DNA from: Anaerotruncus sp. | Lineage (GTDB): Bacteria; Bacillota; Clostridia; Oscillospirales; Ruminococcaceae | Assembly (NCBI GenBank): GCA_021770005.1 | Contig: JAETRV010000006.1 | Span: 4,372 to 68,371, forward strand | Reading direction: 5' to 3' | Length of the DNA: 64,000 bases | Shown: positions 22,603 to 39,864 of the stretch, in pieces | How positions within the stretch are numbered: position 1 is the first letter of the stretch | Layout of the letters: every line of letters starts with the position of its first letter | Notes under the pieces: model-generated | Database searches by the model: none | What the model was told of the DNA's origin: nothing | What the model saw: only the letters and a program-made list of their open reading frames with translations | Position numbers and translations under genes: made by a program

Positions 22603-22679
<77 letters not shown>

Positions 22680-22871: not shown

Positions 22872-24160
22872 CTACTGTGGAGTGTCCCTACTCGGTTCCT
22901 CTGTCCCCGGAAGGAAACCGCTCATCCGGTCGATGGCCTTCCGCTTTTCATCGTCCAGCACATGAGAGTACCGCTCGGTAGTGACGATGGAGGAGTGGCC
23001 CATAAGGTTCTGGATGATGCGAATGGGGACATTCTGCTCCATCAGTCGGGTGGCGAAGGTATGCCTGAGTGCGTGGACATTGACCCCTTGCAGCTCGCAC
23101 CGTTTGCAGACCGCCTGTACCCGTTTCTGGTAGGTTCGGGGGTCGGTGTAGATCCCCCGCTTGGAGGGGAAGATGAGGTTTTGGGGATTGGGCTGTCCCT
23201 CGTGAAGCTGAACCTGCCGGTGGAGCATGAGCAGCCGCTAGATGTTTTCATAGACCGGCGTTTCCCGGTTGCTGGTTTTGCTCTTAGGGGTCTCCTGGAG
23301 GATCAGCTCGGTCTTTTTGCCGGATGGGTCGTCAAAGAGCTGCACCCGTTCCAGATCCTTGCAGATACGGATGGTCCGCTTCTTCTCGTTGAGGTCGCCC
23401 CACTCCAACGGTAATATTTCCCCATCCTCGCCCCCGTAAAGAGGGAAAGGAGCATTGCCACCCGCAGGCGCTCGGAGAAGATTTCCTTGATGAAAATTTC
23501 CATCTCCTCCACCGTCAGCACCCGGCGTTCGGTGGGCTGAACCTCCGGGAGCCGAAGCTCGGCGGCGGGGTTTTCAATGATGATCTTCCCCCTGGCTTTC
23601 TCCAAGGCGGCATTCAGCACCACGAAGATGTTGTAGATGCTCTTGGGAGAAAGCCCGCCTTTCCTGTCCAGTCGCCCATTGGTTTGCAGAAAGTTGAGAT
23701 AGGTCTGCATATCAGCATCGGTCACTTTGTTCAGCGGCGTCTGGCCGAAGAAGGGCAATATCTGTGTCTGGTAAGTCTGCATATAGGAAGAATAAGTGGT
23801 GCGCTTCACCGAAGGCGGGGTCTTGTAGGTCTGGATAAAGTACAGCACCCAGTCGGAAAGGGAGATGTCTATGTCGATCCCCGCCGGGGGTTTCAATCCG
23901 AGGGGCGCACCTGCCAGCATCCGGTAGGCTTCCTGCTGGCGCTGTCCCCGAATTTCCTTCACCCGTTTCAAGAACTCCTTGTACTTTTTGGCAAGCTGCT
24001 CCTCGGTCTTGCCGGTGAAGGTCACCCGCCGGTATTTGTCGTTCTCATCGGTCTCATATTTCTGGAAAATGAGGTATCCATCCTTGCGGAGATAGAGGGT
24101 GCCGCCCTCGAAAATCTTGGCGTGTTTGGACGAAGGCGTGTAGCTTTTACTTTCTGCCAT
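22872..24160 (-). pseudogene. int: tyrosine recombinase/integrase, disrupted
   Basis: The N-terminal part is ORF 23303..24160 and the C-terminal part is ORF 22872..23228 (HALRHTFATRL...LMGHSSIVTTERYSHV). The frame is lost in the G4 run (plus-strand C4 at 23420-23423), where ...GARMG should continue EILPLEWGDLNEKKRTIRI... There is also an in-frame TAG at 23240-23238. Confidence 0.8.
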
Positions 24161-26762: not shown

Positions 26763-27284
26763 ATGAAAGAAATGTCCTGTGCTTTTACAGGCCATCGACC
26801 ATATAAATTCCCATGGGGATATGATGAGTCAGATAAGCAGTGTACTGCGCTAAAAGTAGCGATGGACGCTGAGATCGAAAAACTGATAACCGAAGGAATC
26901 ACCAGCTTCTTTTCCGGTATGGCGGAGGGTGTTGACCAGTGGGCGGCGCTTTCCGTTTTAACAAAGAGAAAGAGTAACCTGGCAATAAAGCTGAACTGCA
27001 TTCTGCCTTGGAAGGGACAAGCAGATGGATGGAGCCAAGCGTCACAAAGACGCTACCAGGAGATATTGAGGCAGGCGGATACCGTGACTTATGTGGGACA
27101 GGACTACCAAAAGGATTGCCTGTTAAAGCGCAACCGGCATCTTGTTGACTCTGCAGCTGTTTTGCTGGCCGTCTACAACGGTGAGTGGAGGGGCGGCACA
27201 GCGGCCACCGTGCGGTACGCGCAAAAAGCCGGTAGAAAAATTATCCTGATTGAGCCGATAACCTTAAAGATAACTTATCTGTAA
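26763..27284 (+). CDS. SLOG-superfamily protein (YpsA/DUF1273-like)
   Basis: 173 aa. N-terminal CAFTGHRPYKFPWGYDE... followed by ...FFSGMAEGVDQWAA...RNRHLVDSAAVLLAVYNGEWRGGTAATVRYA matches the YpsA-type pattern as I remember it. Confidence 0.6.
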   Translation: MKEMSCAFTGHRPYKFPWGYDESDKQCTALKVAMDAEIEKLITEGITSFFSGMAEGVDQWAALSVLTKRKSNLAIKLNCILPWKGQADGWSQASQRRYQEILRQADTVTYVGQDYQKDCLLKRNRHLVDSAAVLLAVYNGEWRGGTAATVRYAQKAGRKIILIEPITLKITYL

Positions 27285-27292
27285 AAAGAAAA

Positions 27293-27315
27293 CCGGCTGG
27301 GGATACCCCAGCCGG
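27293..27315 (-). terminator. terminator ending operon A
   Basis: Stem ccggctgggg/ccccagccgg with loop ata, followed on the minus strand by UUUUCUUUUU. Confidence 0.65.
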
Positions 27316-27396
27316 AAACGCAAACCCGCGTTTTGTATAGCCCCTGCTATATAAGCCTTTGGAAAACAGCCGGAGTACCAGCTATTTTCCTGCCCT

Positions 27397-28341
27397 TCAA
27401 GCGGCGTTTTTCTGCCGCTCCTGTCGCTGCACCCGAACCTGAAGATCCTGGGAGAACATCTGAAGGGTGGAAAATTCGTCGTTCAGGTCGTCCAGCTGGC
27501 GGCGGAGGATACCTTCATAGTGCCGCCGCTTTTCTTCCAGCGCATCAATTTTGGCGATCCAGCGGTTCATCACCGCCGGGCTGGTGATGTTGGTGTCGAT
27601 GAAGTGCTTCACCCGTTCCTGGTAAAGCTCCACCTCCCGGCGCATGGCGATGTAGAACTCCTGGGCCATTTTGTCCCGCTGCTTCTGGTCGTCCAGCACA
27701 TACATACTGTTGACGACAAGCTGGCCGCTGTTCTGGTTGTTGGCGTTCAGGGCCTCGATGAAGTCCTCGAACAGCGTCACCTCCTGCATATGGGTGCGGG
27801 GGACAAAAAACAGCTTGCCGTGGATGGAAATAGGCAGGGCCTCCATCCGGGCAAGGAAAAGGTCGGTCAGACCTTCCACCTGTTTGCGGGTGGCACAGCG
27901 TTTATAAAGCCCGAACAATTCCTCCGCCTTCTGGCAGTAATCCCAGGGGTCCACCAGGCTGTCCACAGCCAGGTTGTCGTACCCCGTCTGCCGGTCCATC
28001 CAGAGGTTGGCCAGCTTGGTGTATTGGTTGGTGGTCTCCCCCAATTCTTCCTTCACCAGCTCCCGGCTGATGATCTGGGGGGATTTTTCGTTGTCCCGGC
28101 AGTAAATTTTGAAGATGCGACTGCCCTGGGTCTTTCGAGCCCGGATGTCCTTGGTGGCGCTGCGGAAGGCGTCCGCTTCACTTAACCGACTTCCTTTGGT
28201 GTATGGCAGATCCACCGACTGACAGAGCTGCTGCAACACCGGCTTTTCGATGAGGATCTTAGCAAGGGAGAAATACAGAATCTTTCCCAACACATCGCTG
28301 CTATCGCCCTTGACTGCCATAAAGTTGCTCATGTTCGTCAT
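27397..28341 (-). CDS. hypothetical protein with a coiled-coil C-terminus
   Basis: 314 aa with protein-like composition. Last gene of operon A. Ends ...QKNAA. Confidence 0.6.
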   Translation of the reverse strand: MTNMSNFMAVKGDSSDVLGKILYFSLAKILIEKPVLQQLCQSVDLPYTKGSRLSEADAFRSATKDIRARKTQGSRIFKIYCRDNEKSPQIISRELVKEELGETTNQYTKLANLWMDRQTGYDNLAVDSLVDPWDYCQKAEELFGLYKRCATRKQVEGLTDLFLARMEALPISIHGKLFFVPRTHMQEVTLFEDFIEALNANNQNSGQLVVNSMYVLDDQKQRDKMAQEFYIAMRREVELYQERVKHFIDTNITSPAVMNRWIAKIDALEEKRRHYEGILRRQLDDLNDEFSTLQMFSQDLQVRVQRQERQKNAA

Positions 28342-28364
28342 AGAGATACGCTCCTTTTCTTTGG

Positions 28365-29441
28365 TTATATAGATGGGATTTGCTCCACTTGTCCGGTGGA
28401 ATAGAGATGCCGGGCGTAGAGGAAATCATCGATCCCCTTAAACCGGGCGTCCCATTCCAGTGGCTCAAACAAAAGTCCGTTCTGGCGGGCGATCTTCTCC
28501 ACCTGGGAGAAGGCGTCCCGCACCTGGGGATTTTCCAGCTTGTCCATATCGTAGGCCCCCACCACCTTTTTCAGCGGCAGGCCGTTCAGTGTTTCGGGGA
28601 GGTACCGCAGGCTGTTGACCCCCGGCACGCAGACAAAGAGGGCGTCCCCCAGAAAATAGCTGGCGACATCCCCTTTGAGCCCGCCCTCGGTGACACAGGC
28701 CACCTTGCTTTGGGAGTCTCCGGTGACATGGACCCAGGTCTGGGCCTTGGTCCCCAAGGTAAAGCCCTTGGCGGGATTGCTGGAGAACCAGCGGTACTTC
28801 ATGCCGCCCTCGGCCCGGTCGGAACGGATCTGCATCCCCTGGATGTACCCGTCCTTGTTGTAGATGGGGATGAGATACCCGCCGTTTCCGGCAAAGGTCC
28901 ACGCCCCGTCCCGGAGGTAGAATCCGGGGACGCCTTTTAGCGGATAGCTGGCCGAGAGCTTGGCCGCGATCCTTTTTCTTGCGGAGTAGGAGGCCGGCAT
29001 CGAGCGATACCGGTTCTCCTTGATCCGCTCCAAGGACAGCCCTCGTTTTAAGAGCTGCTTCTGGTGAAAATCCGAAAGGGTCAGAAGGTCCAGCAGGTCG
29101 TAGTAAACATCATGGCGCAGGGCCAGAGGGGCCAGCTTTGAGGCTGGCTTTTTGGAGGGTGGGATTTTAGCGATTCCTTCCACTTTCTCCACAAGCTGGC
29201 GGTAGGCCGTTTTGTTGTCCACGCCGGTGATTTTGGCATACAGCGTGACGCTGTTGCCGCCTGTCCCGCAGCGGTGGCAGTAACAGAGATCCTCCTCGGT
29301 ATTGAGATACAGATGGTGGCTTTTGTCATCGCAAAAGGGGCACCGGGCCTGTACCTCAATATCATCCAGGGTGGACGGCTTCATCTGGAGGCCGCATAGA
29401 GCGGCAGCCTCCAGAATAGGGATGCGAATATAACCGTCCAT
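28365..29441 (-). CDS. DNA primase-like protein (CHC2 zinc finger + Toprim)
   Basis: 358 aa. CPFCDDKSHHLYLNTEEDLCYCHRCGTGG is a CHC2 finger; VTEGGLKGD and AYDMD are Toprim acidic motifs. AGGAGG RBS. Confidence 0.75.
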   Translation of the reverse strand: MDGYIRIPILEAAALCGLQMKPSTLDDIEVQARCPFCDDKSHHLYLNTEEDLCYCHRCGTGGNSVTLYAKITGVDNKTAYRQLVEKVEGIAKIPPSKKPASKLAPLALRHDVYYDLLDLLTLSDFHQKQLLKRGLSLERIKENRYRSMPASYSARKRIAAKLSASYPLKGVPGFYLRDGAWTFAGNGGYLIPIYNKDGYIQGMQIRSDRAEGGMKYRWFSSNPAKGFTLGTKAQTWVHVTGDSQSKVACVTEGGLKGDVASYFLGDALFVCVPGVNSLRYLPETLNGLPLKKVVGAYDMDKLENPQVRDAFSQVEKIARQNGLLFEPLEWDARFKGIDDFLYARHLYSTGQVEQIPSI

Positions 29442-29461
29442 GAAAAAACCTCCTAATACTC

Positions 29462-29579
29462 ATTTTCGATAAATCGAAAATACGCACGCTTCGCGTGCTG
29501 GTGTCGCTTCGCGCCACCCCGTCTCATCGAAAATCCAATCAAGCAGTTTTCGGTAAATCTGATTTTGATTGGATTTTCG
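29462..29579. repeat. cluster of four inverted repeats with TTTTCGRTAA-type motifs (candidate ori/ssi or RNA element)
   Basis: ATTTTCGAT-aa-ATCGAAAAT at 29462-29481; gcacgc-ttc-gcgtgc at 29484-29498; ggtgtcgc-ttc-gcgccacc at 29500-29518; 15-bp perfect arms cgaaaatccaatcaa (29528-29542) / ttgattggattttcg (29565-29579). Confidence 0.6.
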
Positions 29580-31425
29580 GATAACTGGCTTTTTTGAGGG
29601 GGGCGGGGGCCGACTGGCCGGGGGTCACAACAGAGAGGGGCGCATTGGGCACCACCCTGGCCAGCAAGATCTGGTCCGGCAGCTTGGGCAGTCCGGTGAT
29701 GCTCTCCACATCGTCTATAAAGACGGGGTAGCGCCGCCCGGTGAGCCGCTTCATCAGCTGGGAGACCTCCAGGCCCGCCCGCAGCTTCTCCGAATGGGAA
29801 AGCCGCCGGTAATCCCTGCCGTTAAACTGAAAGCGGAAGGCGCTTTTCAGCTCCCCGGTGGTCTTCACCAGGTCGTAGAGAGAAATTTTCACCTGGGGCA
29901 TGGAGAGGCTGGCAAAGGAAAGCTCGTTTCGCACCGCCAGATAATTGACCGCGGCGCTCATCAGCAGCTTTTTTTGCCGGATCAATTCGTCCACTTCCTT
30001 TTCGCGGGCGTCCAAATCGGGGCCCGGCCGTGCGGCGACCTTCTCCAGAGCGGCCAGTTCTTCCTCCGCCTCCTGTTTCCTGGCGTGGAGCTCGGAAAGC
30101 CGCCGCATCTCCTCATCGTCCAGGTTTCCATAGGTCAGGCTGGCGTTATGCCCTTGGATTTGGCTGTCCAGAGCAGAAAGGGCTTCTCCGTGTTCCCGAA
30201 GCTCCTGTTCCATCTTTGCCCGCTGCCCGTGCAATCGGGCCAGCAGGGCGGCGTTTTTCTCCACATCTTCCTTGTGGAATTGTTCAAAGGTTTCCTGCGC
30301 TTGCTTTTCCAGTGCGGTCAGGTCGTTCAGCTGGGAACGCAGTCCCTGGCCTCGTGAGGTGACTTCCCCCAGCTTTTTGCGAAGATTTTCCTGAGCCTGG
30401 GCTACCGCATCAGCCGGGAGCGGCTGTTTACAGGTGGGGCAGATCGCGCCTGGCTGGGTACGGGAGAGCAGGACGCTTACCTGCTTATGCTCCGCCGCCG
30501 CAGCCTGGAGCGCCGCCTGAGTCTCGGCCAAAGCAGCGGTGAATTTGCCCTCGTAGCTTTTCACCCGCAGCCGTTCCTGGGCCAGCTCCGCCTGGCGCAG
30601 CTGTTCCAGCAGTTCCGGAGGAACCTCCTCCGGCTTGTCCCGAAGCAGCTCCTCGTACCGCTGGTGCAGCCCTTCCAGCTGTTTTTCCAAGGCGGGGCGG
30701 TCGATACCGGCCTCCCTTTTCTGTTCAAGAATGCTGATCTGGGCTTCAAGCTGGGCCAGCTGTTCCTTGCCCTGGGAGATAGCTTCCCTGTTTTCCTTCT
30801 GCTGCCGGAGCAGCTGGACCTTCTGGCCCTCCAGCACCAACTTTCCTTCCTCCAGGTCCCGAATTTCTTCCCGCATGGTTTTCAGAAAGGTCTCCGGCGA
30901 CAGGAGAGAGACATTCTCTAAAAGGGTCTGTTCCGGCTCGGCGAGCCGTTCCAACACCGCCTTGTGGTCGATGAGGGGAAGGTTTTTCTGAAGGAGAGTC
31001 TGTCCATCGTTCCCCAGCGTTTCAATGAAATAGAGGGGATTGAAGATGGAGAGAAATTCGTCCCGTTCCCCGAACATTCTGGCAAGGTCGGCCTGCCGGA
31101 TGGCGTAGCCGTCCCAGGTGACCTGCATCTTGTCCCGTTTCCGGGTGCGGACCAGCTCGTGGGAAACTCCCTTGTCGTCCTTGATCCAGAGGTGAATTTC
31201 AATGTCCGGCAAAGTCTCACAGTAGAGCTTGTCGATATGGGCCCCGCCGAAGCGGTCCTGGCCGGTGACAGCAAAGGCGATGGCATCCGCCACCGAGGTC
31301 TTTCCGGCGTGATTGGCTCCGGTGACAAAGCTCACCGGGCCGAAGTCGAAGGTCTGCTCCTCCCGGAAGCACTTGAAGCCGGAGACGGATAAACTGGTGA
31401 TTTGAAACCCGCTGATTTTTTCCAT
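29539..31425 (-). CDS. Rad50/SbcC-like SMC-family ATPase with coiled coil and CxxC hook
   Basis: ORF 29539..31434; ATG 31425 has AAGGAG 8 nt upstream. Walker A GANHAGKTS, a long heptad-rich middle containing GAICPTCKQPL, and a C-terminal VFIDDVESI (Walker B/D-loop). Confidence 0.7.
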   Translation of the reverse strand: MEKISGFQITSLSVSGFKCFREEQTFDFGPVSFVTGANHAGKTSVADAIAFAVTGQDRFGGAHIDKLYCETLPDIEIHLWIKDDKGVSHELVRTRKRDKMQVTWDGYAIRQADLARMFGERDEFLSIFNPLYFIETLGNDGQTLLQKNLPLIDHKAVLERLAEPEQTLLENVSLLSPETFLKTMREEIRDLEEGKLVLEGQKVQLLRQQKENREAISQGKEQLAQLEAQISILEQKREAGIDRPALEKQLEGLHQRYEELLRDKPEEVPPELLEQLRQAELAQERLRVKSYEGKFTAALAETQAALQAAAAEHKQVSVLLSRTQPGAICPTCKQPLPADAVAQAQENLRKKLGEVTSRGQGLRSQLNDLTALEKQAQETFEQFHKEDVEKNAALLARLHGQRAKMEQELREHGEALSALDSQIQGHNASLTYGNLDDEEMRRLSELHARKQEAEEELAALEKVAARPGPDLDAREKEVDELIRQKKLLMSAAVNYLAVRNELSFASLSMPQVKISLYDLVKTTGELKSAFRFQFNGRDYRRLSHSEKLRAGLEVSQLMKRLTGRRYPVFIDDVESITGLPKLPDQILLARVVPNAPLSVVTPGQSAPAPLKKASYPKIQSKSDLPKTA

Positions 31426-31455
31426 GCTTTTCACTCCTTTGGAAATATCAGGTCC

Positions 31456-32252
31456 TTACGCGGCGATCTCATAGCTTTCCAGCAGATTGACCACCTCGTT
31501 GTTTCTGCCCCGCTGCTGATTCAGCCGCACATTCCGCAGGCAGATGCCCTGGGCCAACTGCCGGTCGTCTCCGGGCCGCAGGCAGACGATCTGCCGCCCC
31601 TGCCGGTCGCAGAGGCTGAGGGCGGTGAGTTTTCCGTCCGGGGAGAGCTTCCTGTCTTGAACGGTGTAATCGAAGGTGAAGGAGCCGGACTTGGCCGGTT
31701 GGAAGGCGGAAGGTGCTGCCGCCGGTCTGGGCGCAGCTGTTCCTTGGGGCGCCGCCTTTTGCGGTGCTGGGGCTTTCCCCTGGAGCATCTGGGTGTACCT
31801 GGCGTCCAGGGACTTGCGTCCTGTCTCGGTGATGTAACAGTTTTTCCCTTCTGTTCCACATCCACCCAGACAGCGCCCAGGGAGTAGAGGTACCGGCCAA
31901 TGCCCCACTGGACAGCGGCCCGCTTGAAGGAATCGGAAAGCCCGCCCTTCACCGGCTCGATGTCGCTGTTCTCGGCCCCGTCGGTCTTGGTGACCCACTC
32001 CTTGCGCTCCTCATCGTAGATGGAGAGGGCACAGAGCTGGGAGCCGTTGCCGATCTGGTGCCAGGGGGCAAAGGTGGTTTTCCAGTGGAAGGGCCCCACC
32101 GTTTCGTCCAGCCGCTTCTGGATGGCCCGGCTGGTGATGAAGGCCACCGCCAGCCCCCGGCTTTTGTCCTGGGTGGTCTGTTGGATGCGCCACTCCACAT
32201 CCTGCGCCTCAAAGGGGGCGGTCAATTTCTGGATCAGTTCCTGCTCATTCAT
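31456..32252 (-). CDS. Rad52/Rad22-type single-strand annealing protein; the reading frame needs a -1 shift at 31848-31842
   Basis: The N-terminal part is ORF 31521..32252 (FEAQDVEWRIQQT...GLSDSFKRAAVQWGIGRYLY). After ...VDVEQKGK the zero frame becomes Arg/Pro/Ser-rich, while the -1 frame (ORF 31456..31998) reads NCYITETGRKSLDARYTQMLQ...NLLESYEIAA. Confidence 0.65.
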
Positions 32253-32265
32253 GGGGAAACTCCTT

Positions 32266-32928
32266 TCATTTCAGAAAATCCTTCAAAGTCCGCCCGCTGG
32301 GGATGAGGACTTTTTCGTAGTAGTGATCCGGTTCCTTATCCTTCATATATTCCAGAAGATCCCGGTGCCCCAGCTTCAGCTGGTTGTTGCGTGAGGTAAA
32401 ATGGTCGTCGTTGTTGGGCATCTCCAGAATCAAGTAGGGCAGAGAGGACAGGGTGTGCAGGCTCTTGCACTCCGGCAAGACATTCCCGCCGGTACACAGG
32501 TGAAAGCCGCTGACATTGGAAAAAGGGTAGTGGAACATGGGGGTGTCCGGCGTCAGCCGGCCCTCAGCCACTACGCCCATCTGGCAGTTTTGCACCCGCA
32601 GCCCCATATGCAGGCCAAAGCGGAAAACCAGCCTTGGTAGGGGAAAATGGGGATACACGGTATTCCCATAGGTGATGTCTGCGTATCGGGCCGGGTGTTC
32701 GATGGAAACGGAACGATAGCCGTTATTTCCGGCGTCAAAGGAGATGCAGCCTGTGGGCAACAGTCCGCTTTGGACCATTTCCCGCTGCAAACTCCCCTTG
32801 ATGCACTCCACCAGGGCGTTATACCCGATGCGCTTGGTGATGATGCTCCCCTCTGAGGAGCGGCTCTCCACCTTGATGGTGGCGGAGCCTGGGTCGATGT
32901 GTAAAATCAGTTCTTGTTCGGGGTTCAT
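32266..32928 (-). CDS. E2-like (UBC-fold-like) protein, putative
   Basis: 220 aa. FHYPFSNVSGFHLCTGGN resembles the HPN...Cys active-site strip of ubiquitin-conjugating enzymes and prokaryotic E2 families. Same operon as E1 and JAB. Confidence 0.45.
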   Translation of the reverse strand: MNPEQELILHIDPGSATIKVESRSSEGSIITKRIGYNALVECIKGSLQREMVQSGLLPTGCISFDAGNNGYRSVSIEHPARYADITYGNTVYPHFPLPRLVFRFGLHMGLRVQNCQMGVVAEGRLTPDTPMFHYPFSNVSGFHLCTGGNVLPECKSLHTLSSLPYLILEMPNNDDHFTSRNNQLKLGHRDLLEYMKDKEPDHYYEKVLIPSGRTLKDFLK

Positions 32929-33539
32929 CAGGCGGCCTCCTTCCAGTTTTCCGGTCTCGGCAACGGCAGGTAGAGGACCTTCGCCTTCCGCTCCCGGTCA
33001 TACTTCCAGATCTCATACCGCAGCTCCTCCACCATATGCTTGTAATAATCGAAGATATGGGCGAGGGCTTTTAACAGAGAAAACTCCTGGTTGAACTCCG
33101 GGGAGAGGTAAAGGGTGATCCCGCTGGCCCACCGGTGGTTGACTTTCGTGCTGTAACGGTAGGTGTAATAATAGGAATATAGGCTGTCCAGCTGTTCCTC
33201 CAGCTCCGTCTTTGCCTGTTCCATATAAGGATTTCGCCGCAGGGGGACTCCTCTTTGTCTGGACCAATCCCGGCACAGGCGGTAAAAATCCATCATGCTC
33301 CGGTGGCTGAAAAACCAGCAGGTATCCATATAGGGTCCAACCTCTCGGCATTTCCAGAAGTCACAGACAGTGGTCACTCCCTCGATGATGTAGGAGTAAT
33401 AATCCTCCGCCACGATTGGCAATGCGCCGATCCCTTCCAGGTAATCCTCTTCCCTTCCGGCGTCGCTGAGGACCTTGCCGACCAGGATGGGGATGGGGAT
33501 AAGGCTCAGCTCAAAATTCTCATACTCGTAATCGTCCAT
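32928..33539 (-). CDS. hypothetical protein (aromatic-rich, 203 aa)
   Basis: GAAGGGGG RBS. Its stop overlaps the start of the E2-like gene (TGATG). Ends ...NWKEAA. Confidence 0.55.
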   Translation of the reverse strand: MDDYEYENFELSLIPIPILVGKVLSDAGREEDYLEGIGALPIVAEDYYSYIIEGVTTVCDFWKCREVGPYMDTCWFFSHRSMMDFYRLCRDWSRQRGVPLRRNPYMEQAKTELEEQLDSLYSYYYTYRYSTKVNHRWASGITLYLSPEFNQEFSLLKALAHIFDYYKHMVEELRYEIWKYDRERKAKVLYLPLPRPENWKEAA

Positions 33540-33552
33540 CCCACAGCCCCCT

Positions 33553-33858
33553 TCAGCAAAAGGCCCGCCGGAGGCTTTGGGAAATCGACCGACTGCAAAG
33601 CTGCCGGTTCATTTCCCATAAATAGAAGCGGCGATGGTAGTGGATCTTCGCCCCGTCCAGCAGGTCGTATAGGTCATCCAGGGTGAACCGGGAGTAGTCG
33701 ATTTGCTTGGGGATCAGCGGCTCTCCGTTCAAAATGGGGGAACAGACAGCTTCCATTAGGTAAGGGTCTATCTCTGCAAACTCGTTTTCGGCGGTATCCT
33801 CTGAGGTATCTTCCAGCAGCTGCCGGAAGGTCTGGGAATTTAATTCATACATTTTCAT
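33553..33858 (-). CDS. hypothetical acidic protein (101 aa)
   Basis: AAGGAG RBS directly after the methyltransferase stop. MKMYELNSQTFRQLLEDTSEDTAENEFAEIDPYL... Confidence 0.5.
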   Translation of the reverse strand: MKMYELNSQTFRQLLEDTSEDTAENEFAEIDPYLMEAVCSPILNGEPLIPKQIDYSRFTLDDLYDLLDGAKIHYHRRFYLWEMNRQLCSRSISQSLRRAFC

Positions 33859-33864
33859 TCTCCT

Positions 33865-35283
33865 TTATGCCAGCGCCTTGAAGCCGGCGGCGGTCAATAT
33901 GTGGAACACCATCTTGTTGGTCTGGGTCTCGGTGATCTCGGTCACCAGTGGTTTCCCTGTCAGGGCGTCTGTGCTGGTGACATGAGAATCGGTGAGCTGC
34001 TCCTTGACAATCCGCCCCTTGATGATATGGGGGCTGTCGCAGGGCATGAGGCCGTTAATGAGGCCGGAGCCGCCGATGAGTCCCACCTGTCCCACTGTCA
34101 GGGGGAGGGGCGGGCGCTTTTCTTTGCTATCCAGAGGACTTTGTTCCAATAGTTTTTTGAAGCTGTCCGATAGTTTTTTGAAGCTGTCCGAGGCGGCAAG
34201 CTGCCTTGCCAGCTCCGGGACATTGAACACCGCCCCCTTGAAGATGGGAACCTTCTCCGGGTGGGCGGGCAGCGGGTAGCTTTTCTCCGGCAGCTGGGTC
34301 AGCTCCGGAATTTTGTCCGCATCCTGCACCTGCCGGAGCAGGCCAGGGACCTCCTTGGAGCCATTGTCCCGTGGCTTGTGGATGCCCAGCACCGCCACCT
34401 GGCGGAACCGCTGGAACTCCGTGCCGCAGAATTTGTACACCGAGAGCCGCTCAAAGTTGTCGCAGAGGATGCGGGCGATGTCGGCGGTCAGCCGGTAATA
34501 GGGGATGATGTAGACCAGCAGGCCGCCCACCATGAGGTGGGAAAAGCTGTTTACCAGGAACCGCTTTTCATCCCGGCCGGTCTGGCCGTTCTTCCCCAGC
34601 ACCGAGAGGTAGGGGGGATTGAGGAACAGGGCGTGAAACGCCTCGTGACTGATCCGGGCGCTGAAATAGCTGCCGATGGCCACCCGGTGGAGCCTGGTCT
34701 GGGCCTCCTCCGCCCGGCGTTCGTCCAGCTCTACCCCGTAGGCGTAGCAGTTGTTGCCGGTGGCCATGAGGCGCAGGGCGATGCCGTCCCCGCAGCAGGG
34801 GTCCAGAAGGTTGGTGGTCACCCCGTCAGGAAATTCGATCCCCTTGGTGATGAGCTTCACATGGTCCGGGTCGGTGGGGTAAAATCCCATCCTCACATGG
34901 TTCATCAGCCGCCCGATGATGGCGGCGCTGGCGGTCTTATCCCCGGTATCCGGCATCCCCTTCACAAAGGCGGAGAGGGTGTCGCAAAGCCGGGAGTAGT
35001 CCGGGGTGGAAAGCTGGAACTTCGCCACCGCTTTCCCCAGGCCAAGGGCCGCAGCCGCCAGGTCGGGCAGGGAGAGGCGGCAGTCCTCCAAAGCGGCCAG
35101 CAGGCAGGCTTGATGGGAGCGCAGCGTCTGATACCAGTCCTTGGCCCCGTTGGGGTCTTTTTTCAGCTGTTTCTCAATCTTTTTCCTGGCGGCGGGCATT
35201 TCCTCCTTTGCCAGCAGGATGACCCGCTTGGACTGTTCCAGCCGGTCTACGGCGTATAGCTGCTGTTCGTTGACTTCTTCCAT
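33865..35283 (-). CDS. SAM-dependent N6-adenine (NPPY) DNA methyltransferase-like protein with a long C-terminal extension
   Basis: 472 aa. Motif I is LLDPCCGDGIAL and motif IV is LFLNPPY. Contains a 21-bp tandem duplication (SDSFKKL x2). Confidence 0.7.
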   Translation of the reverse strand: MEEVNEQQLYAVDRLEQSKRVILLAKEEMPAARKKIEKQLKKDPNGAKDWYQTLRSHQACLLAALEDCRLSLPDLAAAALGLGKAVAKFQLSTPDYSRLCDTLSAFVKGMPDTGDKTASAAIIGRLMNHVRMGFYPTDPDHVKLITKGIEFPDGVTTNLLDPCCGDGIALRLMATGNNCYAYGVELDERRAEEAQTRLHRVAIGSYFSARISHEAFHALFLNPPYLSVLGKNGQTGRDEKRFLVNSFSHLMVGGLLVYIIPYYRLTADIARILCDNFERLSVYKFCGTEFQRFRQVAVLGIHKPRDNGSKEVPGLLRQVQDADKIPELTQLPEKSYPLPAHPEKVPIFKGAVFNVPELARQLAASDSFKKLSDSFKKLLEQSPLDSKEKRPPLPLTVGQVGLIGGSGLINGLMPCDSPHIIKGRIVKEQLTDSHVTSTDALTGKPLVTEITETQTNKMVFHILTAAGFKALA

Positions 35284-35365
35284 CGTTAGAAACCTCCTAT
35301 TACAAGGAGGGGCAGGATCAGATGACCCAGCCCCTCCGATTTTTGCCCCAAATGGGTGTTTTCTT

Positions 35366-35974
35366 TTATGCCGCCAGCTCCTGAACAGGCTGGGCCTCCT
35401 CCTGGATGCGGGAAACGATGTAGCCCTTTTCCCGCAGGACTTCCAGAATGGCAGATACCAGCTCGCTATCCGGTTCCGGCTTTGGCGCAGGCTCCTTTGG
35501 CAAGGAAAGCACCGGCTTTTTGGCCGCTTTTTTCTTCGGCTTTATCATCCTGCGGAAAGGCGCAGTCAACAGCCTTTTCAGCCCGGACAGCAGCTTATTG
35601 GGGAGATACCGGCGCAGGCTCACTACCTCCTGGGCGGTGCAACTGCCGATGTTGGAGCGGTTCACCACCAGCCGCTTAGCCGAGACCTCCAGCGCCTGGA
35701 CAAAGTTCTTGGCGCAGAGAGTTCCTCTGGCCTTGCAGGTGGTGGCGTACAGTTCCCCAAAGGCCCCGCCGCCGATCTCCTCCTCCCGGATAAAGCCGGT
35801 ACGGAGGTTGACGGTATCCGCCTCCAGGCGGCGGGCGTCTACGATTCCCCGGCCCAGAAGCCGCCGAACCTTGAGGGTCCCGTTTACCTTCAGAACACCG
35901 TTGACAACCAGAGTATCCGTGGAAAGGATGCTGTAAAGGGCTGTCTTCCCCTTTTCGATGGTAATGGTTTTCAT
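35366..35974 (-). CDS. hypothetical protein: N-terminal beta-rich repeat region (bactofilin-like impression only), Lys/Pro linker, small C-terminal domain
   Basis: 202 aa. ATGA overlap with the E1 stop. LVVNGVLKVNGTLKVRRLLGRGIVDARRLEADTVNL... Ends ...VQELAA. Confidence 0.5.
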   Translation of the reverse strand: MKTITIEKGKTALYSILSTDTLVVNGVLKVNGTLKVRRLLGRGIVDARRLEADTVNLRTGFIREEEIGGGAFGELYATTCKARGTLCAKNFVQALEVSAKRLVVNRSNIGSCTAQEVVSLRRYLPNKLLSGLKRLLTAPFRRMIKPKKKAAKKPVLSLPKEPAPKPEPDSELVSAILEVLREKGYIVSRIQEEAQPVQELAA

Positions 35975-36744
35975 CTCCTTTTTTCTTTAATCGTAGGCCG
36001 CATATTGACGCTGGTGGTGGAAAAGGAGACCGCTTGGACATTGGTTTCCCCTCTCACCAGGATGTTGTAGACCAGAGCTACCACTGCGCAGGCCGCCGTG
36101 ATGTTGGCGGTAATGGCCTGTGGCGCCGAGACTGAAGCCTCGGCACAGGAAAGCTCGGTGGGGAACTTGTCGGTTCCGTCTAAGATTTCGGGGTACAGGG
36201 CCCCAACCGGCTTGTGGCAGGTGCGCCCGCCGCTGCGGACGCCGCACACCACCTGGCCGGTGTACTCCCCGTTGCCGCTGTCGATGTACACCAGGTCTTT
36301 CATCTGATAGAACACCTTATGGCAAAGGCTCCGGGACTTGTTGTTGTCCACCGCGCCGATGAGGATGACCAGCTCGGTGAGGGTTTTGTCGTGCCATTTC
36401 CCCTCTGAATAATACTGGCCGGTTTTCCAGATACGGGGCGTCACCAGCTTTTTCAATTCCTCTTCACTCTCAATGTAAGCGGGGATGTACTCGGTTTCCA
36501 GGCCAAAGACGGAGGAATACCGCTCGGCCAAAACCTTGGCTTTGTTTTCCCCTAAGTCCGCCTCAATGAAGTTCTGGCGGACCAGGTTCTTTTTCTCCAC
36601 CAGGTCGCCGTCCACAATGAGAAAACGGCAGTTTTCCTGGTCCAGCGCATAGAGCAGGCGGTAAAGGTGGGGGGCGATATGGCCTCCGGTGCCCCCTGCC
36701 CCCAGCATCACGATCTTGACCGGGCGATTTCGGGAAAATCTCAT
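35971..36744 (-). CDS. ThiF/MoeB/E1-like adenylyltransferase
   Basis: 257 aa starting from ATG 36744. MRFSRNRPVKIVMLGAGGTGGHIAPHLY...FLIVDGDLVEKKNLVRQNF carries the GxGxxG and D.D..E..NL.RQ motifs. As sequenced it is also the C-terminal part of ORF 35971..38175. Confidence 0.8.
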   Translation of the reverse strand: MRFSRNRPVKIVMLGAGGTGGHIAPHLYRLLYALDQENCRFLIVDGDLVEKKNLVRQNFIEADLGENKAKVLAERYSSVFGLETEYIPAYIESEEELKKLVTPRIWKTGQYYSEGKWHDKTLTELVILIGAVDNNKSRSLCHKVFYQMKDLVYIDSGNGEYTGQVVCGVRSGGRTCHKPVGALYPEILDGTDKFPTELSCAEASVSAPQAITANITAACAVVALVYNILVRGETNVQAVSFSTTSVNMRPTIKEKRR

Positions 36745-38133
36745 GCCGCCATCGCCCCTTTCAGGGTGAAACCGTCTTCCTCCCCCGTGATGGGGAAGGA
36801 GTCTTCCAGCAGTTGTATCCGGTTGCTCCACCAGTCGGGGAATGCCTTTGGCACCCCCCTCCAGCACATCGCCGGGGTGGATGGGCAGGAAAGTCCCGCC
36901 GTTGCAGATCCGGGCGGATACCTCCGGGAAGTATTGATCCAGCCGGCCCATGACGAGGTACAGGCAGTTTCCCTTCTCGTCGGCGTCGTCAATGCTGGAA
37001 AACTGGGCTGCCATGGAGTTATGCGAGTGTATATCGGCGTAGTAGATCAGCCCGTCCTCCTTCTCCGGGTCGATGGGGATGTCCGCAAAGATGCGGGCCT
37101 TGCTCACCTTCTGGTGGGGGATGTCCAGCAAAAATCTTTCCTCCAGCCGGTTCCAGTAGACCCGGACCAGGGCTTCGGTCTCGGCCCCGTCCCGCATACA
37201 GGAGCGGAAGAAGCCAATGACCTGCTGCACCAGCTCAAAGGGGATGAGGGGAAGGTTGGAATAAAAGCCCTCCCGAACTTCGCCCAATTCTGGGATTTCT
37301 TTTGGTCTGGTGATGAAGCGGCCGGACTCCATACAGCGAATTTCATACACATGGCCATCCCTGGCCGGGACAAAGTTGATGACCTTGGGGGCCTTCTCCA
37401 TCTCCTCCAGGGAGGAAAAAAGACCCTTATACGAGGCGATGCCCTTGGACTGGGCGGCGATGTGGGGGCGCACCTTGCAGGTGAAGTCCCTATCCTTGGC
37501 CTTTTTCAGCATATCCCGGAAGCCTTCGGACTTTTCTATCTCCGCCTTCATGTCGTGGATAACGGAGTCTTTGGGCTTGGGGATGGTTTTGGTGATCTTC
37601 CCGTACTCCATCGTCCAGGAAACACGCTTGCCATCCTCCAATTCGGGGAAGTCCGTCTCCTTCTCCTTGCGGAGTTGCTCAAAGGTCTTTTTCGAGTCGG
37701 TGATCTCCTCCGTCACGCCGCTAAACTGGAAAACCGGCGGCTTTTGGAGCAGTTCCCCGGCAAGGTCCTCGGTAATCTTTTCCTCCACCTGGCGCATGGC
37801 TGCCTCAAAGGGGTTTGCGGGCGCAGCAGACGGTTTGGCTGCCGCCTTGGGAGCCGCAGGCTTTTTTTCTGGGGCAGCGGCCGGTTGGGGCGGGGCTTCG
37901 GGTTCTTTTTCTTCTGGGACATTTGCATCCTCCTTCTTTTCTTTGGGCTCCGGCGTTTCGGCAGGGGCCTCTTTGGGCTGGGCGGTTTCTGTGGTTTCCG
38001 GAGCTTTTTCTTCCGGGGGCTGGGGCGCCGGTTCCTTCTCCGCGAACAGGGCGTCAAAATCCTCCCTGCCGCTGCCAAGGTCCAGGCTGCCCTCTCCTCC
38101 GAAAATCGCCATGAAATCCATGTTGTCACTCAT
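36741..38133 (-). CDS. JAB/MPN (JAMM) metallopeptidase with a long N-terminal region. The native C-terminus is in another frame: one extra G in a G6 run fuses it to E1 as sequenced.
   Basis: ATG 38133 has AAGGAGGA upstream. JAMM motif HSHNSMAAQFSSID (HxHx7Sx2D) at about 37029-36988. Deleting one G at 36854-36859 gives ...HPGDVLEG-VPKAFPDWWSNRIQLLEDSFPITGEEDGFTLKGAMAA-stop, and that stop forms an ATGA overlap with the E1 start. Confidence 0.7.
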
Positions 38134-38162
38134 TGTGTTTTCCTCCTTCTTTGTTTTGGGAC

Positions 38163-38205
38163 AAAAAAAGACCACAGCCGGGCCCTTTTGGGCTGGCTAT
38201 GGTCT
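38163..38205 (-). terminator. intrinsic terminator at the 3' end of leader copy A, about 30 nt before the JAB start
   Basis: Minus-strand RNA reads agaccauagccagccc-aaaa-gggcccggcuguggucu followed by UUUUUUU. Confidence 0.7.
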
Positions 38206-38376
38206 TTCTGTCTGGTCGTATTTCGGTTTTCGTGTTGGACGGATTACGGCGGGGCGCACTGGCCCCTGGGGTCTTTCGCTCCTACCTTGGGCGGCACAAG
38301 GGGCCGCGCCACACTCCTACCTGAAATACAGGTCTATTTTAGCATGAGGAGGAGAGGGTGTACACTTGCACTTTTG
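38163..38376 (-). promoter_or_regulatory. promoter + ~165-nt structured leader + terminator cassette, copy A
   Basis: Extended -10 TGcTAAAAT (TAAAAT at 38341-38336). Conserved core contains two AGGUAGGAG repeats. Roughly 85-90% identical by manual alignment to 60061-60268. Confidence 0.65.
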
Positions 38377-38526
38377 AAAAATTTATTTCTCAATATGAAG
38401 AACAAAAGCGACGATAGGGTGATTTTTTATTTTTGTCTGTTGCGGTTACAGAGAGAACCTATCATAGTTCAGACAGTGCTTAACGATTGTGAATACCAGC
38501 TCTTAGCGCCTTTAATTGATACTCTC

Positions 38527-39864
38527 TCACCCGTTCCATCCCTCCACCCGAATGAGCAGCTGCCGGGTGTAGGTGTAAGCGCTGACCGGAAAATCCCGCA
38601 GATCTGCGGTGTTGGAACAGATCAGGTAGTCTACAACATTGCCTTCCTCATCGGTCACCACATCGCTGATCAGTACAGCATGTCTCCACCGGTCGGCCGT
38701 GCCCATATGGATAATATCCCCCGGCCTGCCTGTATCGTAGGGGGCGTCAGTGACCGCAACCAAACCGTAACCTCTGTTTTCTTTCGCATAGCTCAAAAAG
38801 TCCTCCACCGCCGACCAGGAGGCGGAGCGTCCCGCCGCTCTGGAGAGGTTGTCCGGGGTGCTGCCATACCACTTCCAAATACCGGGGGCAGAAATATCCA
38901 TGGGGATGCCTCCGGCCAGCAGGCACTGGGAGACAAAATTCTGGCAGTTGCCGCCGTTGCGGCTGTAATCCGGCCAGCTGCTGCTGCGGTCCCCTACCCA
39001 CTGACGGGCGTAGGCAACTGCCCTTTCCCGGTCATAGGGATGGCTGGCCGCCACCGCCTTTTCCTCCCCTTGGGAAAGACGCCGCGCTACATCCTCTCTT
39101 GCAGCTTCCAGCATCCGCGCGGTCTGTTCCTTGTAGTAGGCTTCCAGCTCCGTTAAGGACGGGGTCGAGGGAGAGGAGCGGCGATACGCATACCGCCCCA
39201 TCACAGTCCAATACAGGCGCTCCATCTGGCTGTGGGCCGTGACGGTCCAGCGATCCTCCCCCAAAGATGTCAGGGTAAATTGGTGATAGACATTTTTTTG
39301 CTCCGAATCCACTTCCGGGGTGGCCCGGAAATTCTGGATGCTGTCTTCCGACACCCAGAGGGTAACGGAACCGTCCTCCCCCTCCTCCAAATTCCGGCAG
39401 GTCAGCTCCACCTGATAGGAGAGCAGGGAAAGGTCGGCACGCTGCATCTTTCGTATCTCCACGATGTATTCCCAGATCGCCCGGTTCCCCAGCCGTTGGG
39501 CGTCGGCTCCGGGGGTAAAAAGATCATCCGGCTTTTGCAGCTCCAGCCCCGCAAGGGTGTCGTAGTATCGGGTCATCAGCGCCAGCACGATCTCCTGCTG
39601 CCCCAAAGTCATTTCCCCAGGGTCGGCAAAACCCACCGTTCCGATCCCCAACGGCTCCGGTGGGCTGTCTTCCGCGTCAGGTTCCTCCAGCGGCAATATG
39701 ACCGCCTCCGAAGCCGGCTGTTCCGACTGCGAAGAAGCGCTGTATGAAAAATCGGACCTTGGCAGGTCCGATCCCGAAGGAACAGAAGCGCATCCGGCCA
39801 AGGCTCCGGCCAGCAGCAGCGCGGCAAAATGTTCCAGAAAAGCTGTCAAAATAACACCTCCCAT
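38527..39864 (-). CDS. secreted lipoprotein with a C-terminal amidase/cysteine-peptidase-like domain
   Basis: ORF 38527..39873 (ATG at 39864). Lipobox LAGALAGCAS. The C-terminal part ...RNGGNCQNFVSQCLLAGGIPMD...WRHAVLISDV resembles the putative amidase domain family. Confidence 0.6.
   Translation of the reverse strand: MGGVILTAFLEHFAALLLAGALAGCASVPSGSDLPRSDFSYSASSQSEQPASEAVILPLEEPDAEDSPPEPLGIGTVGFADPGEMTLGQQEIVLALMTRYYDTLAGLELQKPDDLFTPGADAQRLGNRAIWEYIVEIRKMQRADLSLLSYQVELTCRNLEEGEDGSVTLWVSEDSIQNFRATPEVDSEQKNVYHQFTLTSLGEDRWTVTAHSQMERLYWTVMGRYAYRRSSPSTPSLTELEAYYKEQTARMLEAAREDVARRLSQGEEKAVAASHPYDRERAVAYARQWVGDRSSSWPDYSRNGGNCQNFVSQCLLAGGIPMDISAPGIWKWYGSTPDNLSRAAGRSASWSAVEDFLSYAKENRGYGLVAVTDAPYDTGRPGDIIHMGTADRWRHAVLISDVVTDEEGNVVDYLICSNTADLRDFPVSAYTYTRQLLIRVEGWNG

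Follow-up and report, generated by a model that had tools for sequence, protein, structure and literature searches.

What might a ubiquitin-conjugation-type gene set do inside the DNA replication and recombination operon of a mobile element? The question arises from a 64,000-nucleotide stretch of an Anaerotruncus sp. assembly (contig JAETRV010000006.1, positions 4,372 to 68,371; hereafter the window), in which a mobile element of a gut Clostridium carries genes for an E1-like adenylating enzyme, an E2-like protein and a JAB peptidase, built into its replication/recombination operon. By homology and synteny, these genes are very probably a Clostridial sister of the ubiquitin-like (Ubl) conjugation cassette described as PRTRC or operon type 6d. 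As the best overall explanation of what the cassette does, we put forward, tentatively, that E1 and E2 conjugate element proteins ending in Ala-Ala and that the JAB protein reverses the reaction.

The set belongs to one tight minus-strand operon that runs from 38133 to 32266 and onward, from the JAB gene to a DUF6744 gene, with gene spacing ranging from 97 nt down to 4-nt overlaps. Its features are as follows.

36741..38133, minus strand: JAB protein, with a disordered Lys/Glu/Pro-rich N-terminus, a Ubl domain, a JAB-N region and a JAMM/JAB peptidase domain (PRTRC_A 8.4e-12; Prok-JAB 5.5e-5)
37582..37740, minus strand: Ubl domain, JAB residues 132-184, a β-grasp of PRTRC_C/Prok_Ub type (AlphaFold2, Foldseek and hidden Markov model (HMM) comparison)
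36988..37029, minus strand: JAMM metal-binding motif HSHNSMAAQFSSID (HxHx7Sx2D)
35971..36744, minus strand: E1-like adenylating enzyme, 257 aa (PRTRC_ThiF 3e-28; Pfam ThiF 3.7e-12)
35366..35974, minus strand: 202-aa protein with an LAA terminus (no family match)
33865..35283, minus strand: DUF6094 NPPY methyltransferase, 472 aa (PF19587 1.6e-116; NPPY at 34609-34620)
33553..33858, minus strand: 101-aa acidic protein with an aromatic-hydrophobic C-terminus, ..AFC (no family match; positional orthologues)
32928..33539, minus strand: 203-aa Tyr/Trp-rich protein with an EAA terminus (no family match; its stop overlaps the E2 start)
32266..32928, minus strand: E2-like protein of the Prok-E2_D family, 220 aa, candidate catalytic Cys145 at 32494-32496 (Prok-E2_D 5.2e-5; PRTRC_B 1.6e-5)
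31456..32252, minus strand: Rad52/Sak-type single-strand annealing protein with an IAA terminus (PF04098 9.1e-15)
29539..31434, minus strand: SMC/Rad50/SbcC-like coiled-coil ATPase, 631 aa (AAA_23 and SMC_N; SbcC-like in PHROGs)
28365..29441, minus strand: primase with Zn-ribbon and DUF3854/Toprim domain (family HMM matches)
27397..28341, minus strand: DUF6744 protein with an NAA terminus, the last gene of the operon (PF20529 1.9e-99)
38134..38400, minus strand: promoter-like region and leader of about 190 nt (read from the sequence; compared with related loci L008 and L001)

An initial annotation, made from the letters of the window alone, had recognized the JAMM, E1 and E2-like signatures, had described them as interleaved with a methyltransferase and three proteins of 202, 101 and 203 aa, and had placed them in one operon with Rad52-like, Rad50-like and primase genes. 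All three signatures lie on the minus strand where it had put them, and the interleaved genes and the shared operon are likewise as it described. It had also pointed to PRTRC and to the prokaryotic E1-E2-JAB cassettes of plasmids and integrative and conjugative elements (ICEs) as possible relatives, and the best NCBIfam models for the set are indeed PRTRC_ThiF, PRTRC_A and PRTRC_B.

The E1-like protein carries the motif GAGGTGG (36682-36702) and IVDGDLVEKKNLVRQNF (36568-36618), both noticed initially; the conserved motifs of the family are GAGGTGG, DGD..R and ELSC200AE. The crossover-loop Cys (C200 in ELSCAE, 36139-36156) is 98% conserved and is common to PRTRC ThiFs and the Firmicute plasmid relatives, and 58 of 61 homologues have both GxGGxG and this Cys. 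PRTRC_ThiF scores 98.8 bits, while ThiF models reach at most 37 bits (2.7e-9 and below) and MoeB gives E = 0.023, so the clustering with MoeB/ThiF sulfur-carrier activators that the initial annotation named as a refuting outcome is not what is found. All plasmid tblastn matches that were inspected are PRTRC ThiF or the Prok-E2_D-linked ThiF of large Firmicute plasmids. By these scores, the E1 belongs to the conjugating branch rather than to the sulfur-carrier enzymes. It is encoded separately from the E2-like protein, 3 kb away.

In the JAB protein, the HxHx7Sx2D motif is present in 59/59 full-length homologues (638 homologues in all), and a Glu upstream, within ETEALVRVYW, completes a predicted E...HxHx7Sx2D metal site. 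Some homologues also contain LPD11, which conjugative elements carry in their 'polyvalent proteins' (PMC5512222).

A PRTRC_C-type Ubl is fused to the JAB N-terminus and a free Ubl is absent, which is a new feature. Residues 132-184 are the best-conserved stretch of the N-terminal half, and their AlphaFold2 model is a ββ-α-ββ fold with a predicted local distance difference test (pLDDT) score of 82-90. Nearly all top Foldseek matches have the ubiquitin fold (FERM-F1, RA, PB1, DWNN, USP7-UBL, Elongin B and Ub/SUMO-PCNA), with probabilities up to 0.99, every E-value at or above 0.07 and none individually significant. An HMM of the window-clade Ubl matches a Bacillus protein of 129 aa (6.6e-7), PRTRC_C of plasmid pQBR55 (4e-4) and a Thermoanaerobacterium protein of 124 aa (4e-3), each E-value coming from a small database. 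The Ubl is fused in every JAB homologue examined. At the junction that follows it the residue is variable (G, D, E, K, T or S; Asp in the window), and the short linker and following helices are predicted to be ordered (AlphaFold2, pLDDT 84-89). The initial annotation was thus right that the window has no free-standing Ubl, there being no small ORF with a Gly end. This very segment was one of its candidate modifiers, and it is indeed predicted to be ubiquitin-like and is homologous to PRTRC_C.

The E2-like protein scores 23.5 bits on Prok-E2_D (PF14460), whose cutoff is 25. Of its 409 homologues, which include relatives of 45-60% identity, most have a precomputed PF14460 match; a Bacillus relative reaches 35 bits on this model, and a C. 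difficile relative is named 'prokaryotic E2 D family protein' in RefSeq. A profile search of 1.84 billion cluster representatives returned 1107 family members at E <= 1e-3 and 615 at E <= 1e-10. The strip that had been likened to the HPN...Cys stretch of E2 enzymes, YPFSNVSGFHLCTGGN (32482-32529), contains C145, which is invariant in a 30-sequence alignment of the family (A1), and the motif P[FLWY]SN[VI]x2-7C (PFSNV..C in the window) occurs in 83 of 84 homologues. The ubiquitin-conjugating (UBC) fold that this likeness implied has no Foldseek confirmation. The AlphaFold2 model (pLDDT 85.8) comprises a helix (36-46), a six-strand meander (61-120), the C145 loop and three further helices (157-169, 188-195 and 202-207), an order that by eye resembles UBC (α1, β-meander, Cys loop, α2-α4). 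Against the PDB, Foldseek has nothing at E <= 1e-3, and its top 50 contain no UBC entry; the first matches are PUR-alpha and HCMV pentamer subunits with template-modelling scores (TM) < 0.2. Alignment of the family with four canonical E2s by hhalign yields a probability of 0.5%, in a test that is weak because of its tiny UBC profile. The fold assignment is thus unconfirmed, and rests on the Pfam/HMM match, the motif and the order of secondary structure. Profiles of the JAB and E2 families found nothing among PDB sequences. In BFVD, the E2-like model matches three uncharacterized phage proteins only (1.7e-9 to 7e-4: A0A7R7G2H5, A0A172Q0C7 of Acinetobacter phage vB_AbaM_ME3, and A0A6J5MFC0), and a human faecal phage record (MT835919.1) encodes a homologue with 43% identity; relatives of the family therefore also occur in phages.

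The 101-aa and 203-aa proteins are conserved partners of this E2 family. A positional orthologue of the 101-aa protein is found in 73 loci, nearly all ending in [FY][CVIFLM], and its family HMM matches a 103-aa protein of plasmid pMU3262 at 5e-7. The 203-aa protein has a positional orthologue in 79 loci, 63 of which end in Ala-Ala, and its HMM matches a 181-aa protein of pMU3262 (9e-5) and a 152-aa protein of pBL141-2 (0.03). As a core partner of Prok-E2_D systems, the 101-aa protein may correspond to PRTRC_E, whose members end in Phe and so resemble the aromatic-hydrophobic end of the 101-aa family; the 101-aa protein itself has no PRTRC_E HMM match. The tails of both, often after an acidic stretch, read ..DEDFF, ..EEEEIY, ..KASEF or ..RRAFC (compared in the window at 33553-33858, L089:7047-7358, L090:6230-6517 and the PRTRC_E of L116-L119). 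The tail of SSB is acidic and Phe-terminated; the aromatic tail of the 101-aa and PRTRC_E proteins recalls it and, by analogy, may be a docking motif. By comparison the 202-aa protein is variable, being detected by tblastn in 18 loci, about one-fifth of those related. In its N-terminal half, a G/V/L-rich β-strand pattern (VVNGVLKVNGTLKV...) repeats in a way that recalls a bactofilin-like β-helix; a basic linker and the LAA end follow. The DUF6094 protein, conserved in all related loci, is probably a DNA methyltransferase, judging from its sequence matches; it has partial PADLOC matches (mad2 at 1e-15, and type II methyltransferases), and its weak NCBIfam matches include the protein-glutamine methyltransferase PrmC (E = 0.012).

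Over 130 Clostridia loci share the gene order of the window. Searches with the window proteins (tblastn) recover the order JAB-E1-(variable)-methyltransferase-small-mid-E2-Rad52-SMC-(primase-DUF6744) in practically every locus that is long enough; it recurs in IMG/VR contigs, and 54 of 80 metagenome loci are of this cassette type. Co-conservation across related elements, which the initial annotation had asked of its proposal, thus holds for genome, IMG/VR and metagenome loci alike. A scan of one genome per species yields 80 loci, almost all labelled Clostridia (Oscillospiraceae, Lachnospiraceae, Acutalibacteraceae and Defluviitaleaceae) and one on a contig from an Opitutales-labelled metagenome-assembled genome. 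Cultured hosts include Acetatifactor muris DSM 23669, Clostridium leptum DSM 753 and Solibaculum intestinale, with Pseudoflavonifractor too; the nearest relative, at 94% identity, is in an Angelakisella metagenome-assembled genome. The cassette occurs in two settings. One is a small tRNA-integrated int/xis/primase element like that of the window; the other is a conjugative element, where the cassette adjoins genes for an SNF2 helicase, ArdC, a coupling protein and a MobA/MobL relaxase. Some elements (L135, L160 and L192) have a second module beside the cassette, of helicase-DnaN-MoxR-SSB-VWA type, made up of a 1010-aa helicase, a DnaN-like clamp, bpMoxR, SSB and VWA proteins (L135:11107-20839, L160:13093-20897, L098:779-8870). 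The last of these loci, L098, is a rearranged serine-recombinase element that keeps the second module and DUF6744 and is without E1, E2 and JAB.

The proteins of these operons share a C-terminal Ala-Ala. Counting non-redundant cassette ORFs against flanking ORFs of the related loci, 247 of 613 operon ORFs (40%) end in Ala-Ala, versus 19 of 376 flanking ones (Fisher p = 2e-39). All 19 of the latter are on the operon strand and within 3.6 kb of the cassette, and none of 141 opposite-strand ORFs has this end. By family, the proteins ending in Ala-Ala are as follows.

Rad52: 60 of 60
202-aa protein: 11 of 12
DUF6744: 26 of 29
SMC-like ATPase: 42 of 55 (plus AS in 6 and AG in 5)
E1: 20 of 47 (plus VA in 8)
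Primase: 17 of 41
JAB: 2 of 21
E2: 0 of 67
Methyltransferase: 0 of 60

Variants of the tail likewise consist of small residues (AS, AG, VA and TA), Lys is the commonest residue at position -3 (31%), and lengthened Rad52 tails keep the Ala-Ala end (e.g., ..YEIAAPVEQAA). A nucleotide-level cause, such as a ribosome-binding site (RBS) or translational-coupling motif, is ruled out by the variety of codons, stops and spacing. The tails use four Ala codons and three stop codons and are followed by varied downstream sequence, and because all of these occur, selection acts at the protein level. In conjugative relatives, the SNF2 helicase at the operon head is tailed and the coupling protein, relaxase, ArdC, resolvase and toxin-antitoxin genes are not; in L135, the second replication operon (helicase and DnaN-like clamp) is tailed too. 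No Ala-Ala enrichment is seen in three sister plasmid systems or four canonical PRTRC loci. The initial annotation had suggested Ala-Ala C-termini as candidate modifiers. The pattern it noticed is statistically very strong.

How does this set compare with described systems? As described by Iyer, Burroughs & Aravind 2006 (PMC1779556), operon type 6d combines a JAB protein that has an additional N-terminal domain with a small Ubl, an α-helical protein and an E2 in which the Cys is present and the HPN His is missing; the PRTRC system is a ParB-related, ThiF-related cassette (TIGR03735-03742). The window set resembles PRTRC in its ThiF-type E1 with a crossover-loop Cys, its E2-like protein with a conserved Cys and no HPN His, its JAB protein with an N-terminal extra, its PRTRC_C-type β-grasp Ubl, an accessory protein with an aromatic end (PRTRC_E versus the 101-aa protein), residence on plasmids or ICEs and, sometimes, linkage to an SNF2 helicase. 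HMMs of the cassette recover the pQBR55 proteins (PRTRC_ThiF at 4e-30, PRTRC_B at 2e-7 and PRTRC_C as above). However, all window scores are under the TIGRFAM trusted cutoffs (ThiF 98.8 versus 144.75 bits, PRTRC_A 45.1 versus 101.8, PRTRC_B 24.4 versus 131.45), even though each of these is still the best model; the JAB and E2-like proteins are thus, by sequence, homologous to PRTRC_A and PRTRC_B but below equivalog level. ParB-family, PRTRC_E and PRTRC_F models have no HMM match among the operon and element proteins tested. The Ubl is fused to JAB, whereas PRTRC_C stands free and ends in Gly; Rad52, the SMC-like ATPase, the DUF6094 methyltransferase, primase and DUF6744 are linked to the set; the neighbours have Ala-Ala tails, for which the four canonical PRTRC loci are not enriched; and the hosts are Clostridia rather than Proteobacteria. 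Membership of PRTRC in the TIGRFAM sense fails, and the set falls in the Prok-E2_D branch already named by RefSeq.

The closest parallels in that branch are Firmicute plasmid systems (B. licheniformis pBL141-2, Thermoanaerobacterium pMU3262 and C. difficile pHSJD-312). These share the core order small (~100 aa)-mid (150-260 aa)-E2_D, an E1 with 33-37% identity, a Ubl with a disordered Lys/Glu-rich N-terminus and a DNA-metabolism context (RecA, SSB, UDG, ArdC, and DUF6094 with a helicase). In pMU3262 and pHSJD-312, ThiF is downstream of the core, directly after the free 123-124-aa protein; in pBL141-2, ThiF precedes the core and the free 129-aa protein follows E2. In pMU3262, the DUF6094 gene adjoins a DEAD-box helicase gene. 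They differ in that the Ubl is free (123-129 aa, ending K-K-G or N-K-G), no JAB is annotated nearby and no neighbour ends in Ala-Ala. By sequence comparison, the conserved core has five parts (E1, E2, Ubl, small and mid), to which the window clade adds a Ubl-carrying JAB.

Type II cyclic oligonucleotide-based antiphage signalling systems (CBASS; operon type 6b) share E1, E2 and JAB chemistry. In place of a Ubl, their acyl donor is an enzyme encoded in the operon, the CD-NTase, which Cap2 conjugates through a C-terminal Gly/Ala that is conserved only where Cap2 and Cap3 are present (PMC10097602). Cap2 differs in being an E2-E1 fusion with one substrate, alongside an effector in a defence context; the window has no CD-NTase or effector, and the nucleotide-binding N-terminus of its E1 alone matches Cap2, weakly (1e-7). 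Bub (type 6E) and Bil systems also combine Ubl, E1, E2 and peptidase on mobile elements, and type I Bub encodes its Ubl as a fusion, with JAB fused or adjacent to E1 (PMC11601596). In Bub, however, the Ubl is fused to E2 rather than to JAB, the chemistry is that of Ser/Tyr oxyesters with no catalytic Cys, whereas both the E1 and the E2 Cys are conserved here, and the protease is DUF6527, for which the window set has no match. Bil differs in its free ISG15-like Ubl. PADLOC reports no match of the window set to Bub or Bil, and neither PADLOC nor PHROGs matches the E2, JAB, 101-, 202- or 203-aa proteins. Filing the set under a known defence or phage family was dropped for lack of such matches to its specific parts.

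Taken together, the strictly conserved catalytic residues of E1, E2 and JAB probably signify an active acyl-transfer cascade, which would need a free C-terminus with small residues. E1 would adenylate a free C-terminal carboxylate and pass the acyl group to its Cys200 and then to Cys145 of E2; E2 would transfer it to an amine, probably Lys, on a target; and JAB would hydrolyse the conjugate. The fused Ubl offers neither a free C-terminus nor a conserved small residue at its junction, and for this reason we look to the tailed proteins as donors: the acyl donors could, as a tentative assignment, be the element's own x-Ala-Ala-terminated proteins, namely Rad52, the SMC-like ATPase, DUF6744, the 203-aa protein, primase, E1 itself and the SNF2 and DnaN-like neighbours. 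The integral Ubl would then dock the JAB protein onto E1, perhaps with its Lys-rich N-terminal tail as the acceptor. By analogy, such donors would parallel Cap2 and the CD-NTase in type II CBASS. We prefer this model because it accounts for three features of the tails: their restriction to this element family, their absence from E2 and the methyltransferase and rarity on JAB, and their occurrence in exactly the clade that has lost a free Ubl terminus. Taken one step further, and more speculatively, E1-E2-JAB with non-Ubl modifiers might reversibly couple the marked replication and recombination enzymes (Rad52 annealase, SMC/Rad50-like ATPase, primase, clamp-like protein, helicase and DUF6744) through their C-termini, perhaps onto the Lys-rich N-terminal tail of the JAB protein. 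Such a scheme would extend Cap2-CD-NTase conjugation to several substrates, and the element would use it to assemble or control its replisome and recombination machinery.

The main rival, a canonical Ubl cascade that we hold to be somewhat less probable, would read the same genes differently. JAB would cut its own N-terminal part after β4, the released Ubl would be conjugated to host or element targets, and the Ala-Ala tails would be ClpXP-type degrons that keep replication and recombination proteins short-lived. The homology of the Ubl domain to PRTRC_C and to free, Gly-ended Ubls is in keeping with this. So is a comparison within PRTRC itself: in Paraburkholderia, the sole canonical locus examined that bears PRTRC_A, PRTRC_C extends three residues past the Gly (..AKGSYA), while in the other three, where no PRTRC_A is annotated, it ends at Gly (..DRG, ..TKG). 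These loci (L119:4121-4339 versus L116:5466-5678, L117:4466-4678 and L118:689-907), a sample of only four, fit processing by JAB. An Ala-Ala carboxylate is moreover a recognition motif of ClpX, and a few contigs carry tailed proteins without E1, E2 or JAB. Yet the junction residue that such cleavage would expose is unconserved (many relatives have Lys, Glu or Thr where the window has Asp), and the model shows a short, ordered linker. Degrons also leave unexplained why the tails are confined to this element family and spare E2, the methyltransferase and, mostly, JAB. The tails, many of them basic, could alternatively be export signals by which proteins travel with the DNA to the recipient, independently of E1, E2 and JAB. 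Type IV secretion substrates do have C-terminal, often basic, signals, and some cassettes are in conjugative elements; but the same tails are found in small int/xis/primase elements with no conjugation genes, the relaxase, coupling protein and ArdC are untailed, and the strict conservation of the last two residues suggests that the terminus itself is recognized, all of which makes export very improbable. Scarcely credible is an E1 of the sulfur-carrier or cofactor type (MoeB/ThiF), or a peptide-adenylating, MccB-like one, with an unrelated 'E2' and no protein conjugation. It could draw on the weak ThiF matches and on the E2-like fold that Foldseek and hhalign leave unconfirmed, but it conflicts with the far higher PRTRC_ThiF score, the MoeB value given above, the lack of thiamine, molybdopterin or RiPP (ribosomally synthesized and post-translationally modified peptide) genes nearby and the strict linkage to a Cys-bearing Prok-E2_D, a JAB and a Ubl domain in all loci.

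Separate from the chemistry is the question of role. From context, we infer that the module would control or assemble the element's own DNA machinery, reversibly and covalently, as the element becomes established or is maintained. Phage defence is less likely, because the set always lies among replication, recombination and anti-restriction-type genes and its specific parts have no PADLOC match. A conflict system is, in our estimate, rather improbable: either an anti-defence device that acts early after entry, (de-)modifying host defence proteins or reversing host Cap2/Bil-type conjugation, or an antiphage defence like Bil or CBASS. Speaking for it are neighbours of anti-restriction or establishment type (orphan methyltransferase, SNF2 helicase, ArdC, relaxase and coupling protein), LPD11 in some JAB homologues (PMC5512222) and the fact that all bacterial E1/E2/JAB systems characterized so far act in phage defence (PMC11601596). 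But PADLOC matches neither E2, JAB nor the accessory proteins, an effector, a CD-NTase and a defence-island context are absent, and the set always stands between element replication and recombination genes, in int/xis and conjugative elements alike.

Several observations weigh against the model of Ala-Ala-tailed donors. Adenylation, thioester formation and conjugation are all inferred from sequence, and the UBC fold of the E2-like protein is unconfirmed, Foldseek and hhalign both being negative. The link between tails and E1 is one of co-occurrence only, in what is essentially one evolutionary event: one clade with a fused Ubl and Ala-Ala tails versus three lineages with a free Ubl and no such tails. 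A C-terminal Ala-Ala is a ClpXP degron in the ssrA tag, in CtrA and in RqcH Ala-tails, and a degron role could account for the tails without any part for E1. About half of the Ubl junctions read DPKG or NPGS and so contain Gly, and in type I Bub the JAB domain of BubCD frees a Ubl encoded as an E2 fusion (PMC11601596). Tailed proteins occur without E1, E2 or JAB in the available sequence of L098 and L115 (the whole 31.8-kb contig), L185 and L196. L098 weighs little, because its DUF6744, 98-99% identical to those of L084 and L121-L150, marks it as a recent rearrangement of a cassette-bearing element; DUF6744 scans of IMG/VR and metagenomes for cassette-free relatives return mostly cassette-bearing loci, the exceptions L098, L185 and L196 being rearranged or incompletely sequenced. 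Finally, the copy in the window may be inactive: its JAB, Rad52 and integrase genes are frameshifted, and its E1 (..KRR) and SMC-like ATPase (..KTA) have no Ala-Ala tail.

As written, the window has a single 734-aa ORF (38175..35971) in which JAB is read in frame into E1. Comparison with homologues traces this apparent fusion to one extra G in a G6 run at 36854-36859; with G5, JAB is a 463-aa protein whose last residues are ...KGAMAA, and the TGA of its gene and the ATG of E1 overlap at 36741-36744. The JAB coordinates of the initial annotation imply this correction, their 1393 nt not being divisible by 3, although it was left unstated there. Against its homologues the Rad52 gene has a -1 frameshift, one A short in an A5 run near 31855, and the integrase changes frame near 23417-23435. 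Within about 16 kb, the element thus departs from intact homologues by three 1-nt frameshifts, of which at least two (JAB and Rad52) fall in homopolymer runs; this suggests indel errors of long-read sequencing or an element in decay.

The JAB gene is preceded by a conserved promoter-like sequence, GTGCAAGTGTAC ... CATGCTAAAATAG. The leader that follows contains two AGGTAGGAG repeats and an intrinsic terminator hairpin with a T7 run right before the RBS of the JAB gene. It is conserved in L008 and L001, the latter differing on both hairpin arms, and by appearance is of attenuation or antitermination type. An Rfam scan at gathering thresholds matches two tRNAs only and nothing in the leader. The element adjoins a tRNA-Met gene (22603-22679) and also encodes a tyrosine integrase, an Xis-like helix-turn-helix (HTH) protein, a sigma-like protein, DUF6431, a Cro/C1-type HTH protein and a YpsA/SLOG protein; past 38527, the genes (Amidase_6, MarR and MATE) are host-like. 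A search near the right border for an att repeat of the tRNA-Met 3' end found none of 12 nt or more, which leaves the right end of the element undefined. Queried by megablast, 27000-39000 has no match in phage or plasmid collections.

Type II CBASS and Bil were listed as the characterized bacterial pathways in the work that then characterized Bub, and further operon families identified bioinformatically were described there as functionally uncharacterized (PMC11601596). Both PRTRC and the window set are bioinformatically defined only, and literature searches on PRTRC, DUF6094/DUF6744 and Prok-E2 found no functional study of this cassette or of the PRTRC/6d branch. What is distinctive of the set is the Ubl-JAB fusion, the fixed linkage to Rad52, the SMC-like ATPase, DUF6094, primase and DUF6744, and the element-wide Ala-Ala tails. 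The Clostridial variant is common in human and animal gut metagenomes, and tails on identifiable proteins make an unusually clear, genetically encoded substrate hypothesis. If they are E1 substrates, C-terminal protein-protein conjugation would be a general bacterial strategy rather than a CBASS oddity, tied here to Rad52, SMC and clamp proteins, whose eukaryotic counterparts are regulated by SUMO and ubiquitin. If they are degrons, these elements would practise a programmed, element-wide instability of their replication proteins. Either way, a strong sequence signal would be explained and the DUF6744, DUF6094, 101-aa and 203-aa partners would gain roles.

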